Origin: a virus
Lineage: Duplodnaviria > Heunggongvirae > Uroviricota > Caudoviricetes
IMG/VR virus record: IMGVR_UViG_2531839531_000009
DNA length: 55,409 nt
Reading direction: 5' to 3' (one strand)
Part shown: positions 3,002 through 9,727 of the stretch, in pieces
Numbering within the stretch: position 1 is the stretch's first letter
How the letters are laid out: each line of letters begins with the position of its first letter
Notes under the pieces: model-generated
Database searches by the model: none
What the model was told of the DNA's origin: nothing
Seen by the model: the letters and a program-made list of their open reading frames with translations, nothing else
Program-made: the position numbers and the translations under genes

Positions 3002-4413
3002 AACTGGCACCGAACTTAAAAAAACAGCCACACGACAAAATGACCGAAGTCATTATTTTTGCGGGTAGTGATGCCTGGGCGCACGCGAAACAGTGGCAGG
3101 AACAGGACGGGCGACTTGCTGGTGATAACGTCCCGCCTGTATGGCTGGGAGACAGCCAGCTTGACGAACTGGCAGACCTGAAAATTATCGACGATGGTCG
3201 CTATTGTGTCCGGCTGTACAAGGCAGGCCACATCAAGCCGTCAAATATTAATGCTATCGGGCAAAAGCTGGCGGCGGCAGGTGTACGGGATGCGAATTAT
3301 TACCCTGATGGAATGCACAGCCAGAAGCTGGAGAACTGGCACGACTACCTGCAACGGATCCGCGAACAGGCAGAGCGCGGGGAAATACTTACTGACGAGC
3401 AATACAGCCAGCGAAAAACCACGCTACCAATGAGCATTGGATCTGCAGGGTACGACACACAGCTTGATTATGTCGTTAAGGGCGTGATTCCGGCTAATTC
3501 ATTGTGCAGCACATACGGCGCGAGCGGTTCCTATAAATCGTTCCTCGCGTGTTCCTGGGCGTGTCATGTTGCCACTGGCCGTCACTGGGGAGGCCGCAGG
3601 GTGGCGCATGGTTCGGTGATGTATGTTGTCGGTGAAGGTGGCATTGGTGTCCCCCGCCGTATCAAGGCATGGGAAATCGTTAATGATGAACGGGTGGAAA
3701 ATCTGTACCTGGTAAACCGCCCGATTTTTCCGGCAGTCCCGCTTGATGTTGATGAAATGGTCATCGCTTCCCGCCAGGTTGAACGGGAAACGGGTAAACC
3801 GGTACGCATGATTATTCTTGATACGCTGGCGCGTTGCTTTGGCGGTAATGATGAAAATGACGCGCGGGATATGGGGGCGTTTATCCGTGGATGTGACGAA
3901 CTGAAACGCCGCACAGGGGCCACGGTGCTGGTGGTTCACCATTCCGGCAAGGATGAAACAAAGGGGGCGCGTGGTTCCAGTGCATTTCGTGCATCTCTGG
4001 ACGCTGAATACCGTATTCGCCGTGAAGGTGCAGACAGTGAAGCCCTGGTTATCTCCTGCACAAAAATGAAGGACGCGGAGGAACTGAAAGAGGCCGCATA
4101 CGATTTACGTGTGGTGGAGCTTTTTACCGACACTGACGGGGAGTTAATCACGTCGCTGGTTGTTGTGGATAAGCCGCGCCCACCCGTTGAACTGGAGCGC
4201 ATCGAGGAAGCCGGGAACAAGACGGAGAATCATGCCGCGCTATGGGGCTGTATCCGTTCACGCACACAGCGCGGAGATAAATGCACTATTCCGTTGTTGC
4301 GCGATGATATGAAAAAGCTGGGGTATGAGATGAAACACTTCCGGCGCTGGCTGTACAAGCTGGAAGGTGATGGCGTTATTGCTATTGACGGTGATGACGT
4401 GCGCCCACTGTAA
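2998..4413 (+). CDS. replication protein with RecA-like (RepA/DnaB-type) ATPase domain
   Basis: 471 aa; Walker A-like YGASGSYKS and Walker B-like RMIILDTLAR...VLVVHHSGKD; resembles primase-helicase/Rep proteins of satellites and genomic islands. Confidence 0.75.
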   Translation: MKLAPNLKKQPHDKMTEVIIFAGSDAWAHAKQWQEQDGRLAGDNVPPVWLGDSQLDELADLKIIDDGRYCVRLYKAGHIKPSNINAIGQKLAAAGVRDANYYPDGMHSQKLENWHDYLQRIREQAERGEILTDEQYSQRKTTLPMSIGSAGYDTQLDYVVKGVIPANSLCSTYGASGSYKSFLACSWACHVATGRHWGGRRVAHGSVMYVVGEGGIGVPRRIKAWEIVNDERVENLYLVNRPIFPAVPLDVDEMVIASRQVERETGKPVRMIILDTLARCFGGNDENDARDMGAFIRGCDELKRRTGATVLVVHHSGKDETKGARGSSAFRASLDAEYRIRREGADSEALVISCTKMKDAEELKEAAYDLRVVELFTDTDGELITSLVVVDKPRPPVELERIEEAGNKTENHAALWGCIRSRTQRGDKCTIPLLRDDMKKLGYEMKHFRRWLYKLEGDGVIAIDGDDVRPL

Positions 4414-4607
4414 AAAGTGGGTAGTAAAAGTGGGGAGTGTGGGGAATTTAACAAAATTGAAACGTGATTCCCCACTTTCCCACCTGTATATACCCCAAAA
4501 AGTGGGGAATAAAAAACACATTGAAAAACATCACGTTAGAATCACAAAAAAAAGAAGTGGGGAGACGTTGGGTAATTTCAAAAAGTGGGTAGTAAAAGTG
4601 GGGAGCA
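4411..4607. repeat. iteron array (putative replication origin) just downstream of the replication gene
   Basis: 25-bp direct repeat aaaagtgggtagtaaaagtggggag at 4413..4437 and 4581..4605, plus extra AGTGGGGA cores and one inverted copy (tccccactttccc) between them. Confidence 0.6.
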
Positions 4608-4614
4608 GTGAGGA

Positions 4615-4866
4615 ATGACCAGAAAAACCAGAGATAAGACAGCGCCAAAATATAAAGCGTTAGACATGACAGAGCACGCCTTAAAGGTGGCAATCAGAAC
4701 GATAGACCGCCACGCTGGGGAAGGATACGCGAAAGCACACCCCGAACTGATAAGCGCATTCATGACCACGACGGCGGCAAACTTTGCCACGCTGACAGAA
4801 CGGGAGATTGCCGAAGCGGAACAGGTGACAACCATCAACATTAAAACTGGAGAGCAGACAGCATGA
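4615..4866 (+). CDS. hypothetical protein
   Basis: 83-aa ORF starting just after the iterons; stop overlaps the next start. Confidence 0.4.
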   Translation: MTRKTRDKTAPKYKALDMTEHALKVAIRTIDRHAGEGYAKAHPELISAFMTTTAANFATLTEREIAEAEQVTTINIKTGEQTA

Positions 4867-5219
4867 CAGCACAGATAGCGGCTTACGGGCGGCTGGTGGC
4901 TGACCCGCAGTTAAAGACCACCAGCAAGGGTACACAAATGACGATGGCTAGTATGGCGGTCCCCCTTCCGTGCAGCCAGGCAGATGACGGAACGGCGACG
5001 ATGTGGTTATCCGTCCTGGCGTTTGGCAGACAGGCCGACGCACTGGCAAAACACCACAAAGGCGAACTGGTGAGCGTGGCGGGTAACATGCAGGTAAGGC
5101 AGTGGACAGGCCAGAACGGCGAAACGCGGCAGGGCTGGCAGGTTATCGCAGACAGTGTAATCAGTGCCAGAACGGCGCGACCGGGCGGCAAAAAAAGGTC
5201 AACAGGACCAGGCTACTGA
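4863..5219 (+). CDS. putative single-stranded DNA-binding (SSB-like, OB-fold) protein
   Basis: 118 aa; ...WLSVLAFGRQADALAKHHKGELVSVAGNMQVRQWTGQNGETRQGWQVIADSVI has the pattern of short SSB proteins; by eye only. Confidence 0.5.
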   Translation: MTAQIAAYGRLVADPQLKTTSKGTQMTMASMAVPLPCSQADDGTATMWLSVLAFGRQADALAKHHKGELVSVAGNMQVRQWTGQNGETRQGWQVIADSVISARTARPGGKKRSTGPGY

Positions 5220-6906: not shown

Positions 6907-7290
6907 ATGCAGAATCATTACAATGACCTTAAGCCAATTGCCGAAATGATGTATCCGGATCCAGCAGTAGAGGAATTAAAGGCTATTGCTGACAAAATGC
7001 GTTTAAGTGAACGCCTTGTTGATATGAATCAGGTGATGGAACTTACTACCCTTAGCCGTCGCACATTGCTAAACCTTGAGGCTCGCGGAGAGTTCCCCGA
7101 ACGCGTACAGGTTACGGAAGGGCGTAAGGCCTGGTATTTAAGCGAAGTGATCGACTGGATAAACAATATTCCTCGAGCTTCTGAATATTGCCGCGTACCT
7201 GTCCCAAAAAAGCCAGATGCGGCGCTATGCCTCAAGATTGAGCGTGTACGCCGCAATGCACGGGATGGTCGCTATAAGTTGATTGGTTGA
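6907..7290 (+). CDS. second AlpA/excisionase-like HTH protein
   Basis: 127 aa; ...LSRRTLLNLEARGEFPERVQVTEGRKAWYLSEVIDWI is an AlpA-type helix-turn-helix. Confidence 0.55.
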   Translation: MQNHYNDLKPIAEMMYPDPAVEELKAIADKMRLSERLVDMNQVMELTTLSRRTLLNLEARGEFPERVQVTEGRKAWYLSEVIDWINNIPRASEYCRVPVPKKPDAALCLKIERVRRNARDGRYKLIG

Positions 7291-7345
7291 TGAAATTAGG
7301 GCCCGTTCTGGCTGGCGGGTCCTTTCCGGCGATCCGGTAGGCTAC

Positions 7346-7380
7346 GGGGCGGCGACCTTGCGGATTTTCGCTATTTATGA
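7346..7380. other. lambda-type cohesive-end site (cosN-like)
   Basis: ctacgGGGCGGCGACCTtGCGGaTTTTCGCTATTTATGA matches the lambda left cohesive end GGGCGGCGACCT and the following ~20 nt with two mismatches as recalled; lies ~110 bp upstream of the Nu1-like gene. Confidence 0.6.
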
Positions 7381-7491
7381 GCCTTTTCGGGTTGGTGGTG
7401 GTGGTTTTGTTTTTCGCTCTATCTCTATGAATAAAAAGGGAAAGATAACACCAACACACCAACCTGAAACCTTAACTAAGTGGGGATATTG

Positions 7492-8034
7492 ATGAAATCG
7501 CACCTGATGAACAAAAAAACTATGGCGCAAAGCTGCCGCGTAAGTGCGACAGCGTTCGACAAGTGGGGAGTAACTCCCGTTGAGCGTAAAGGCCGTGAGG
7601 CGTTTTATGATGTTGCTAGCGTGATAGACAATAGGGTTAACAATGCAATTAACCAGCTTACAAACGACAAAGGCGAGATTGATGATGATGAACTTTTACG
7701 CGTAAGAATCAGATTGCTGACAGCACAGGCGGAAGCGCAGGAACTTAAAAACGAGCGCGAACGCGGCGAGGTGATTGATACAAAGTTTTGCATCTACGCG
7801 ATTTCAAAACTAGCGAGTCAGATTTCATCAATCATGGACAGCCTCCCGCTCACAATGCAAAGGCGCTTTCCCGATATAAGGCCGTATATGCTGGATGAAC
7901 TAAAAAGGGAAATAGCCAAAGCATGTAACGCATGTGCAAGACTTGACGAAAACCTGCCACAGATACTGGCTGATTACCTGATGGAAACTACCGGAAGCGC
8001 GCCTGAGAAGTTGCTACAGAACAAAGGCGAGTAA
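7492..8034 (+). CDS. terminase small subunit, lambda Nu1 family
   Basis: Conserved blocks shared with Nu1: LTAQAEAQELKNERERGEVIDTKFC, SIMDSLPLTMQRRFPD; start 7492 (GGGG 6 nt upstream) or 7507. Confidence 0.8.
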   Translation: MKSHLMNKKTMAQSCRVSATAFDKWGVTPVERKGREAFYDVASVIDNRVNNAINQLTNDKGEIDDDELLRVRIRLLTAQAEAQELKNERERGEVIDTKFCIYAISKLASQISSIMDSLPLTMQRRFPDIRPYMLDELKREIAKACNACARLDENLPQILADYLMETTGSAPEKLLQNKGE

Positions 8035-8107
8035 CCGCCGCCCCGTAACGGGCCATAATTCCAGGAAGGACCTGACGACACCAGGCTATCAGAGCGATGG
8101 GGGCACA

Positions 8108-8389
8108 ATGACAGAAGCCGAAATACTGCGATTAATCCGCCGCGTTACCGGAATCAGCCAGCAGGCTGACGAACAGGCCACGCAGCCGGACAGCGTGACC
8201 GCTGAAAATTATGTGCGTGTTGTTGCTGAGGTGATGCGCCGTGACGGTATCGAGCTTAACGGCGTGGATATGCGCAACATACGCACCAGAGTTCTGGAGA
8301 TGTTGTCGTACCGTCGCCGCGTGCAGATGTACCAAGAGAAAGAAAAAATTACTTACCACTGGAAGAAGCCGGAACGGTTACGACGTTAA
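8108..8389 (+). CDS. hypothetical protein
   Basis: 93-aa ORF directly after the small terminase gene; no recognisable family. Confidence 0.4.
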   Translation: MTEAEILRLIRRVTGISQQADEQATQPDSVTAENYVRVVAEVMRRDGIELNGVDMRNIRTRVLEMLSYRRRVQMYQEKEKITYHWKKPERLRR

Positions 8390-8395
8390 CTTGTG

Positions 8396-8430
8396 GTGAC
8401 ATACCGTGACGGAGAGTGACACACAGTGAC
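8396..8430. repeat. four GTGAC motifs at exact 10-bp spacing
   Basis: GTGAC at 8396, 8406, 8416 and 8426, immediately after the last island gene. Confidence 0.5.
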
Positions 8431-9163
8431 AAAAAAGACGGTATTTAAATCGGGTGGTGTTTAATACCCCCAGGGGGATAGAAATCCCTACACCTCATTG
8501 CTTATGGGACCGCCCGCCTACCCTTGTTCACATCGCCACAGGTTCGAAAACTTTTTTTGGGAAGGTGTGCACGGGATTGATAGATGAGGTCTATCTATAA
8601 AAAATCACAAAATCCGCGCCATTGCTGGATCCGCCAAAAATCCCCCACCTTACGGCAGACAAAGAAAACGCGAATTATGGGCCTGTTGCAGAGAAAAAAG
8701 GTCTCACTAGTTTTGCGCACCCTAGCATCGAGGTTCGTCAGCCTCCCATCAGCAACCAGATAACTAATCTCGCTGGTGGGCATGATGCCGATATGGGGAC
8801 TTCCATAACGGTTTATCCGTGATCATCCACCAGCTTCATGGCGGATAGCCGGAAAATGATAACGGTATAGCCCGTCGCTTGTGTCTATTTGTTCCGCATT
8901 GTTGCATACAGTGCACCGAACGGTGTAGTTAATGGTGTAGTTAATTTGCGATTTTTAACGTTATTTGCAGCGATGTTTGTTGGTTAAATTCAATAAGTTA
9001 TGCGCATTTAATTATAAATATCGTGAATGAATAATCATGCATAAGCATTTTGCTTAAAATATCGGCAATATTTGGAACTTATTACTGGAATTTTGGGTAA
9101 TACGTTGTTGGACCGACCCGGTCTGGTTATCATATCGCGCTCTTAATTGCGGGAGGATGTAAC

Positions 9164-9727
9164 ATGAACCTTGACGACAAATCGCTGTTTCTTGACGCCA
9201 TGGAAGATGTCCAGCCGCTGAAACGTGCTACCGATGTCCACTGGCATCCAACGCGTAACCAACGTGCGCCGCAGCGTATCGACACGCTGCAGCTTGATAA
9301 TTTCCTCACCACCGGATTTCTCGACATCATCCCACTAAGTCAGCCGCTGGAGTTTCGGCGGGAAGGGTTGCAACATGGGGTGCTGGATAAGCTGCGCAGT
9401 GGTAAATATCCGCAACAGGCGAGCCTGAATCTTTTGCGCCAGCCGGTGGAAGAGTGCCGCAAAATGATGTTCAGTTTCATTCAACAAGCCATGGCTGATG
9501 GTTTGCGTAACGTGCTGATTATTCATGGCAAAGGACGGGATGATAAATCGCATGCCAATATTGTCCGCAGCTATGTGGCGCGCTGGCTGACCGAATTTGA
9601 TGATGTTCAGGCATATTGCACTGCGCTACCGCATCATGGCGGCAGCGGGGCGTGTTACGTCGCACTACGTAAAACGGCGCAGGCGAAGCAAGAAAACTGG
9701 GAGCGCCACGCTAAGCGCAGTCGTTGA
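9164..9727 (+). CDS. smrA: Smr-domain endonuclease SmrA (YdaL)
   Basis: 187-aa ORF with the Smr-domain motif LIIHGKGRDD...VRSYVARWL; position upstream of dgcM as in K-12. Confidence 0.85.
   Translation: MNLDDKSLFLDAMEDVQPLKRATDVHWHPTRNQRAPQRIDTLQLDNFLTTGFLDIIPLSQPLEFRREGLQHGVLDKLRSGKYPQQASLNLLRQPVEECRKMMFSFIQQAMADGLRNVLIIHGKGRDDKSHANIVRSYVARWLTEFDDVQAYCTALPHHGGSGACYVALRKTAQAKQENWERHAKRSR

Follow-up and report, generated by a model that had tools for sequence, protein, structure and literature searches.

Work on PICIs and other satellites has so far centred on the proteins that redirect capsid size and packaging and on the mimicry of cos and pac sites. Plasmid iteron arrays that lie outside the origin and titrate the initiator are known from P1 incA and F incC, and the satellite P4 requires crr, which carries the same iterons as P4 ori. 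Plating of phages with lambda-type replication is reported to be prevented by plasmids that carry a portion of the lambda replication region with some of ori-lambda, which is defined by its iterons (PMC3349717). The prototype PICI of the layout considered here is EcCICFT073 (PMC6092414; PMC6739421) and its cosB is recognised by an RppA-TerS complex (Fillol-Salom et al., 2019; PMC6739421). Here we describe a short phased array of GTGAC repeats in the 3' region of an island of this family, found in a 55,409-bp stretch of DNA (the window).

The array is carried by a ca. 10.3-kb EcCICFT073-family PICI inserted between abgR and smrA. Island genes were assigned from the annotation of the E. coli MFDS1016424 record, which is identical to the window, together with Pfam and PHROG scans. 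The island encodes, in order, an integrase, AlpA, YlcI/YnfO-like, Icd-like and DUF4222 proteins, a RepA-type helicase, a frameshifted SSB, a lambda gpE-like major capsid protein, a gpD-like decoration protein, a second AlpA-like protein, a Nu1-family small terminase and a 93-aa hypothetical protein. This is the family layout of int-alpA-...-DUF4222-rep-ori-SSB-capsid(gpE-like)-decoration(gpD-like)-packaging redirector-cos within about 10 kb and with an own att site, and the order agrees gene by gene with EcCICFT073, which we located in the CFT073 genome with a published primer. In contrast to EcCICFT073, the island carries a full-length lambda Nu1-family TerS (7492-8034, plus strand) in the place of RppA as well as an added HK97-type cos. 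A PDB sequence search with this TerS returned no informative match. Ori-like iterons of the island's own (AAAAAGTGGGTAGTAAAAGTGGGGAG; AAAGTGGGG type) are found at 4412-4605, directly after repA. The last gene (8108-8389, plus strand; phrog_1561) is the constant upstream neighbor of the array. Its 93-aa product belongs to no Pfam family and has about 1,000 homologues, those listed being from E. coli or Shigella and called 'hypothetical' where named. The AF2 model is a three-helix structure (pLDDT 71) without a Foldseek match in the PDB at E < 1 and without any match to a DNA-binding fold. As a binder of the array the 93-aa protein was dropped because it occurs equally in islands with and without the array.

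The array consists of four GTGAC cores that follow one another at intervals of exactly 10 bp, starting at 8396, 8406, 8416 and 8426 on the plus strand as originally predicted. The cores occupy 8396-8400, 8406-8410, 8416-8420 and 8426-8430, the units read GTGACATACC, GTGACGGAGA, GTGACACACA and GTGAC, and the sequence from 8391 to 8450 is cttgtgGTGACataccGTGACggagaGTGACacacaGTGACaaaaaagacggtatttaaat. The conserved 3' flank at 8431-8450 (plus strand; AAAAAAGACGGTATTTAAAT) contains an A-tract and GACGGT, and this combination lies directly 3' of the array in every related island. The window contains 83 GTGAC sites where shuffles predict 85.6, so that the pentamer as such is not enriched, but no other 5-mer in the 55,409 bp recurs fourfold with a constant period between 7 and 15 bp, and no 5-mer phased in this way arose in 60 first-order Markov simulations. 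It is consequently the phased arrangement and not the frequency of GTGAC that makes the array exceptional. No ORF of 40 aa or more covers the array on the minus strand. An Rfam scan of 7200-9200 found nothing at the array and only sub-threshold miRNA-like matches on the cosB inverted repeat described below.

The original prediction placed the array just past the last island ORF and at the right edge of the island. It does lie directly behind that ORF, starting 7 nt past the TAA stop codon (8387-8389), but not at the very edge: the island's right boundary, the attR core AATATCGTGA identified by junction comparison at 9017-9026, is 596 bp away, and an HK97-type cos block followed by arm-type repeats occupies the space between. 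The comparison with an island-free strain that had been suggested as a check was carried out with K-12. The empty site between abgR/mcaS and smrA (...attattaatatcgtgaatgaataatc...) contains no array, and related islands carry the array at other sites, for example beside proX (L003). The array is therefore part of the element.

Related islands indicate that the cores and their helical phase are under selection. Loci were gathered through the 93-aa protein and DNA patterns, and all 39 A-tract-followed GTGAC arrays found in such islands in IMG/VR represent one homologous element. The ancestral array had five units, GTGACATACC, GTGACGGAGA, GTGACAACCA, GTGACACAC[A/C] or GTGACACGCC, and GTGAC followed by AAAAA(A)GACGGT. 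The window retains U1, U2, U4 and U5 while U3 (GTGACAACCA) is absent. Relatives carry 4-5 units, and three independent changes in copy number can be recognised: loss of U3 in the window, loss of U4 in L332 and replacement of U1 by an insertion in many islands. Every one of them involves whole 10-bp units and keeps the register. The island beside proX has four GTGAC cores at 10-bp spacing with different spacers. Across about 40 islands, variation affects 1 of 25 core positions, in the outermost unit, compared with 7 of 20 positions in the spacers (Fisher p = 0.0096). The cores of a single array are all the same (100% identity), whereas its spacers (ATACC, GGAGA, AACCA in U3, and ACACA) share about 40% identity. 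Invariant cores, variable spacers and copy changes by whole units together argue that selection maintains the five core bases and the helical phase.

The array is an optional component of these islands. It is present in 30 and absent from 34 of the 64 islands that have the 93-aa gene and enough downstream sequence. Among 46 islands with long flanks, its presence is unrelated to integrase type, AlpA, TerS, the capsid/decoration pair or the subtype of the 93-aa protein, nor does it depend on an island being capsid-forming, with TerL and portal genes of its own (12/22 vs 11/24). Only Rep subtype is partially associated with the array (15/20 vs 5/18, p = 0.008), which may reflect lineage. The region 3' of the genes in relatives is a mosaic of short cassettes, many of them palindrome-centred, bounded by copies of ...CGGTAACT..., and within it the array and the HK97-type cos occur independently, L314 having only the cos and L034, L051, L073 and L177 only the array. 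The commonest form of the array is found in 156 of 5426 complete E. coli genomes. EcCICFT073 itself has no array. Its c1504-07::cat derivative, which served as a transferable marked island (PMC6092414; PMC6739421), lacks cos2, the 93-aa gene and the whole mosaic region, as judged from the Table S5 primers (PMC6739421). Since the array comes and goes and an island with this deletion was still used as transferable, the 3' region is accessory, and the core functions of the island family do not require the array.

This pattern of gain and loss raises the question of whether a 10-bp sequence was once duplicated in tandem and left the array as a relic without function, in the manner of a decaying minisatellite carried along by the mosaic 3' region. 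Homology of all island arrays to one element, found only in E. coli/Shigella islands among the matches examined, a VNTR-like copy number of 4-5 and the absence of the array from half of the related islands without visible consequence would be compatible with such an origin, as would the prototype, whose whole 3' region can be deleted without abolishing transfer. The units are, however, not mutual copies, their spacers being poorly alike next to fully identical cores, and the substitutions between islands fall in spacers and not in cores. Neutral decay would not spare precisely five core positions together with the register. In a simple tandem repeat (minisatellite) the units would be copies including their spacers, which they are not here. 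We thus regard a relic as decidedly improbable, and the comparison of related islands identifies the array as a genuine cis-element, conserved and under selection, in a satellite family already known.

A recombination arm site, one of the functions originally proposed for the array, is rejected by comparative data. Phased direct repeats close to the int-distal att site are typical of RDFs of the Xis/Cox/TorI type and the island encodes two AlpA-family proteins, so that a binding site for the integrase or for an excisionase (RDF) acting in excision and integration might have been expected in this part of the island. Both island ends were searched for the GTGAC array motif, which is absent at either. 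They instead share another composite. At the right arm (8879-8945, plus strand) it consists of TTGTGTC, TTGTTCC and TTGTTGC at 10-bp phase (8879-8905) followed by two copies of GGTGTAGTTAAT (8922-8945), and the same composite (TTGTNNC x3 + GGTGTAGTTAAT x2) lies at the left end between attL and int (2814-2880 in L001), with matching distances from the att core at both ends. These composites are likely the integrase/RDF arm sites. In addition, the distance from the array to the att core differs from 596 bp in relatives, islands with integrases 83-100% identical to that of this island occur both with and without the array, and L073 keeps the array despite a different right end with GCGGGTTAT repeats. 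The array consequently has neither the fixed core distance nor the co-inheritance with integrase type of an arm-type or RDF site, and we consider such a role highly improbable. An array related to the composite of the two ends, GA[A/C]ACAAC x6, is located between int and alpA at 68-128.

The surroundings of the array are rich in cos sequences. A lambda-type cos at 7317-7464 (plus strand), directly upstream of the Nu1-family TerS gene, comprises a cosQ-like GGGTCCTTTCC (7317-7327), an exact lambda cosN GGGCGGCGACCT (7347-7358) and, in the position of lambda cosB, a candidate cosB inverted repeat formed by GGTTGGTGGTGGTGG (7390-7404) and CACCAACACACCAACC (7449-7464) that contains no GTGAC. A truncated, inverted copy on the minus strand at 8036-8072, made up of cosQ and the first 8 nt of cosN, is identifiable as a remnant of EcCICFT073 'cos2'. 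The HK97-type cos block (8467-8561, plus strand) is a separate cassette that starts 37 bp downstream of the array. It is homologous to the intergenic region between the HNH and TerS genes of the Hendrixvirinae phages mEp235, Fraca, vB_EcoM-606R7 and PhiR49_2, which encode a Terminase_4 TerS, an HK97-like TerL and an HNH protein, and it runs in phage orientation. Its conserved core GGACCGCCCGCCT...CACATCGCCACAGGTTCGAAAACTTTTTTT spans 8507-8558 and includes, on the far side from the array, the A/T tract GAAAACTTTTTTT (8546-8558). The Fraca genome ends, considered as physical cos ends, turned out to be assembly redundancy.

This neighborhood makes a packaging function, also among the original proposals, worth considering, with the array providing cosB-like TerS sites that help a helper's TerS or the island's Nu1-like TerS at a nearby cos. 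The array is situated about 360 bp past the TerS gene and shortly before the HK97-type block, in a region that collects cos sites, EcCICFT073-family islands use island-specific cosB sequences (PMC6739421), and the A-tract 3' of the array recalls small-terminase sites, which often include bent DNA. The lambda-type cosN has its own candidate cosB before the TerS gene, however. A lambda-type cosB would be expected between cosN and TerS or rpp, within about 150 bp of the nick, while the array is found 1,038 bp past cosN. HK97 TerS needs only a single 15-bp A-tract site located 15-29 bp downstream of the cut (PMC11331095). Since this site falls within the conserved block on the side opposite the array, which is upstream of the block, the array is not the HK97-type TerS recognition site. 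The distance between array and block varies, from 37 bp here to about 143 bp in L003, the two occur without one another in the islands listed above, and upstream of the block in phages that share it there is no GTGAC array. Among islands encoding the same TerS (99% or 86% identical) some have the array and others lack it, and capsid-forming islands that bring their own TerL are likewise of both kinds.

The published EcCICFT073 cosB is an element of comparable setting, sharing with the array the island family, the gene layout and the character of an island-specific cis-site near cos, and the cosB of EcCICFT073 cos1 even contains GTGAAGGTGACACCACCACC (PMC6739421). In contrast to the array, that cosB lies between cosN and rppA. 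Its equivalent here is the GGTGG/CCACC inverted repeat at 7390-7464, and the array lies about 1 kb beyond this repeat, past the TerS and 93-aa genes, and is absent from EcCICFT073. The proposed packaging site thus finds no support as a core element, given the island's own cosB and the independence of array and cos blocks. We found nothing in favor of a helper-specific accessory role, and overall a contribution to packaging appears unlikely.

In the viral contigs examined, GTGAC arrays with 10-bp spacing are predominantly iterons within phage replication initiator genes. The pattern GTGAC(N5)x4 was searched in IMG/VR and yielded at least 120 loci. Raw pattern matches included simple tandem repeats in high-GC taxa and were filtered. 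Among these matches as listed, the array falls wholly within an ORF of at least 100 aa in 90 loci, always on the strand opposite to the ORF (90:0). In an all-against-all phmmer comparison, 52 of 63 dereplicated array-bearing ORFs form one connected family. Its members match PHROG 'replication initiation protein' families, a DnaT-like C-terminal domain or, weakly, Phage_rep_org_N, and their genes are followed by DnaB-like helicase genes. Iterons inside the initiator gene correspond to the arrangement known from lambda O. In the E. coli phage vB_EcoS-640R1, 4 + 5 GTCAC repeats spaced 10-11 bp apart are found in the gene for 'DNA replication protein O' (URC10041.1), with an A-rich repeat tract behind them. 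Of 5426 complete E. coli genomes, 1821 (34%) have DNA for the N-terminal domain of the initiator, and one matched chromosomal initiator locus is annotated by RefSeq as 'phage replisome organizer'. The GTGAC/10-bp signature is that of a single initiator superfamily, and this superfamily is common in E. coli.

We propose, with a probability of roughly 35%, that the array is iteron-like and would be bound in trans by a phage replisome-organizer initiator, a reading that draws on the analogy with phage origins. Four to five identical 5-bp cores one helical turn apart would offer the same face of the DNA to a head-to-tail, cooperative binder. As the most likely ligand, a phage would supply in trans the 'replisome organizer' initiator of many E. 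coli lambdoid prophages, which would bind through its winged-helix N-terminal domain. In these phages the origin lies within the initiator gene and is made up of GTGAC/GTCAC iterons spaced 10-11 bp apart. Once induced and amplified, the island might recruit the initiator and use the array as a helper-driven auxiliary origin, or the array might titrate the initiator, an alternative that resembles plasmid iteron 'inc' arrays and the ori-lambda iteron plasmids that block lambda replication. Binding of this array by an initiator, and the consequences for either partner, are what we infer from several observations that favor this reading in combination: selection on core and phase, the ori-iteron signature, the commonness of the ligand, neighboring cos sites that mimic those of helpers, an ori-like flank and the precedent for titration.

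The locus has the form of an iteron array, with four direct repeats here and 4-5 in relatives, an unchanging GTGAC core, a spacing within the 10-11-bp range and variable spacers. Like the phage ori iterons of lambda (O/ori-lambda), SPP1-type 'replisome organizer' systems and vB_EcoS-640R1, which comprise 4-6 identical cores at 10-11 bp with free spacers, it is flanked by an A-rich sequence, and its core is identical to the GTGAC/GTCAC of the GTGAC-iteron family. The 3' flank also resembles the sequence after the iterons of lambda ori. The sequence following the last O iteron (ACACAAAAGACACTATTAC...) finds its single best match in the window, 18/25, at the 3' edge of the array, which is weak evidence since the similarity was noticed before testing (local-alignment null 1.3%).

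Several features set the array apart from a phage origin. In phages the array is inside the initiator gene beside a helicase or helicase-loader gene, whereas here it is intergenic without a cis-encoded initiator, and no initiator homologue was found in the island or the 55-kb window. In phage orientation the A-rich strand of the A/T tract comes after GTCAC, while in the island it follows GTGAC, so that the cores are flipped relative to the A-rich flank. Spacers of phage iterons are A-poor, with an A preceding the core in 0 of 225 units compared with 2 of 4 cores in the A-rich spacers of the island array. This difference may reflect coding constraints on the phage side. A long AT-rich unwinding element beside the array is absent, the surroundings having a GC content of 43-45% with only about 20 bp of AT-rich sequence. 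The array is also not the island's own origin, which has a different motif and lies 3.8 kb away. That the island has its own replicon with AAAGTGGGG-type iterons after rep weakens the initiator reading, as does the fact that the link to initiators rests on a 5-bp core and that other winged-helix proteins use 10-bp direct repeats too. The array being organised as an iteron array but lacking the hallmarks of an origin, binding or titration is easier to defend than origin firing. Of the roles in the original prediction, the replication accessory site survives best, on the strength of the analogy to iterons of phage origins, though less readily in the sense of an origin proper.

The array may instead bind another DNA-binding protein of the island, the host or a helper, for example an OmpR/PhoB-like or Xis/Cox-like winged-helix protein, and have no replication role. 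Many winged-helix proteins typically bind direct repeats set at helical phase, as exemplified by the OmpR F1-F3 sites, the P2 Cox boxes and the lambda Xis sites. A head-to-tail filament at the end of the late operon could then work as a roadblock to transcription, in regulation or as an architectural element. The array is indeed placed between the last stop codon of the operon and, in type-B relatives, a hairpin with a T-run about 60 bp downstream (ATGACGTggccaACGTCATTTTTT), and because no island gene is strictly linked to the array an outside trans factor is needed on any reading. On the other hand, a second GTGAC pair elsewhere in the island, for example at a promoter, was not found, and a promoter and terminator scan of 7900-9150 in this window gave no signal overlapping the array. 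No candidate protein emerges, the neighboring 93-aa protein included, and phage initiators are the sole family tied by sequence data to GTGAC/10-bp arrays. We view a different ligand of this kind as only slightly less probable than the initiator, and the same applies to the roadblock, regulatory or architectural functions it would bring.

With initiator binding as the preferred reading, the array can be placed among known iteron clusters. As in P1 incA, F incC and the ori-lambda plasmids, a set of iterons is located apart from a functional origin and would bind an initiator in trans. In contrast to P1 incA and F incC, where initiator and array are on one replicon, the putative target here is the initiator of a foreign phage, and the ori-lambda plasmids are laboratory-made constructs (PMC3349717). 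The array resembles P4 crr in being a second cluster of direct repeats kilobases from the satellite's ori, but differs from it in that its motif is not that of the island's own ori iterons and that it is optional. A conserved, selected and protein-free cis-array with a helper-type origin signature is not described in the PICI and satellite literature that we searched, and an iteron-like array outside any initiator gene, in a satellite, would on present comparisons be new.

More speculatively, E. coli satellites might keep their non-coding 3' region as a library of helper cis-sites that includes, besides lambda-type and HK97-type cos sites and in some islands, origin iterons for the GTGAC-type replisome organizer, the commonest alternative among lambdoid replication initiators. 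If so, an amplified satellite would be replicated by the initiator of the induced phage, or would soak up that initiator and throttle phage replication, and the array would constitute a DNA-only module for hijacking or interference that needs no satellite protein. Should the array bind a phage initiator, initiator capture would join the means by which satellites exploit and restrain phages, and a simple DNA-only determinant of helper range or phage interference would be at hand. A direct test is possible with an array of 35 bp and a candidate ligand encoded in a third of complete E. coli genomes, and natural islands with and without the array but with otherwise identical modules provide ready controls. 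If the ligand is something else, the array would still be a clean, putative phased binding array from which that ligand could be fished.

Some further observations concern the distribution of iterons and cos types. The phage mEp235, which shares the HK97-type cos block, uses a different O-type initiator with other iterons, a mismatch that says little because phage modules are mosaic. vB_EcoS-640R1 has both a GTGAC-type initiator and the shared cos-type region, as a single case. A 14-kb high-coverage Scandinavium contig, probably a multicopy replicon, carries GTGACC x5, an A-run and an AT-rich stretch in this order, a layout that recalls the array with its ori-like flank, beside a primase-like Rep that is unrelated to both island Rep types. 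In related islands, the region corresponding to that of the array also contains palindromic modules of the form CCTC-N5-GAGG. These resemble lambda O iterons and could be the equivalent for O-type initiators.

The PICI of the window contains two types of cos site, which suggests that lambda-type terminases as well as HNH-dependent terminases of the HK97 type can package the island. The lambda-type cos (7317-7464) consists of an exact lambda cosN, GGGCGGCGACCT, a cosQ-like element and a candidate cosB formed by the inverted repeat GGTTGGTGGTGGTGG / CACCAACACACCAACC, and is directly followed by a full-length Nu1-family TerS gene (7492-8034). In the prototype island EcCICFT073 this position is held by RppA; TerS here takes the place of Rpp inside one island family. 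Abutting the TerS stop codon on the minus strand is a truncated, inverted lambda-type cos comprising cosQ and 8 nt of cosN (8036-8072), a leftover of EcCICFT073 cos2. The CFT073 copy (L363, about 9225-9295) is likewise inverted but complete. The second cos (8467-8561), of a type other than lambda, was recognized by its close homology to the HNH-to-TerS intergenic region of the HK97-like phages mEp235, Fraca, vB_EcoM-606R7 and PhiR49_2. Both cos types are found adjacent to each other in a related island (L314).

In related islands the non-coding DNA following the 93-aa gene, the last gene of the island, is a mosaic of ca. 50-60-bp cassettes (L254, L258, L284, L297, L307, L326, L329 and L363). 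All of these cassettes start with a common ..CGGTAACT..TTGAT.. stretch and each contains a different perfect palindrome (CCTCAATTTGAGG, CCCCCATTGGGGG, GCGCAAAATTGCGC, CTACGAAATTTTCGTAG, TGCAGATCTGCA or CCACCATTGGTGG), some of which resemble the lambda O iterons (CCTC-N5-GAGG). The palindromes may be REP-like elements, recombination scars or protein sites. A different island occupies the identical abgR-smrA site in E. coli STEC005 (L002, 2533-2860) and encodes a homologue of the 93-aa protein that is only 59 aa long and is followed by other short, TAAGCCTAC-like repeats; GTGAC repeats were not found after this homologue. Only the last ca. 240 bp, from about window position 8784 to the att core, are common to the two islands. 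Within the 93-aa gene itself, the 21-nt stretch TGAGGTGATGCGCCGTGACGG (8227-8247) is 76% identical to units 1-2 of the GTGAC array, TGTGGTGACATACCGTGACGG (8392-8412), a resemblance that could be due to chance or represent a vestige of the array's origin.

Other repeats of the island are located at its ends and next to its replication gene. A composite of three TTGTNNC motifs in 10-bp phase and two copies of GGTGTAGTTAAT is common to both ends (right copy, window 8879-8945; left copy, L001 2814-2880, the locus carrying the left end), and the interval from int to alpA contains six GA[A/C]ACAAC units spaced 10-11 bp apart (68-128). Both sets are likely binding sites for integrase (arm-type), RDF or AlpA. 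Immediately 3' of the RepA gene, three direct copies and one inverted copy of the iteron AAAAAGTGGGTAGTAAAAGTGGGGAG (4412-4605) form the probable origin of the island itself. The SSB gene of the island (window 4863-5219; L001 8964-9387) is frameshifted in this strain according to RefSeq annotation.

Phage replication initiators of one large superfamily have GTCAC repeats with 10-11-bp spacing as their iterons, which are located within the initiator's own gene, translate as ..NVT..CH..SH.. linkers and are usually followed by short purine-rich repeats. Such initiators were found in IMG/VR loci L011-L130 among the matches listed (e.g. L011, L018, L025 and L065) and in L364 (2635-2940), and the E. 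coli version, scored by DNA for its N-terminal domain, occurs in 34% of the complete genomes of this species. In one IMG/VR phage group (L012, L023, L044, L046 and L080) the GTGAC core occurs in another context, where simple tandem (GTGACAAACG)n repeats that vary in copy number lie between the apparent terminase and portal genes.
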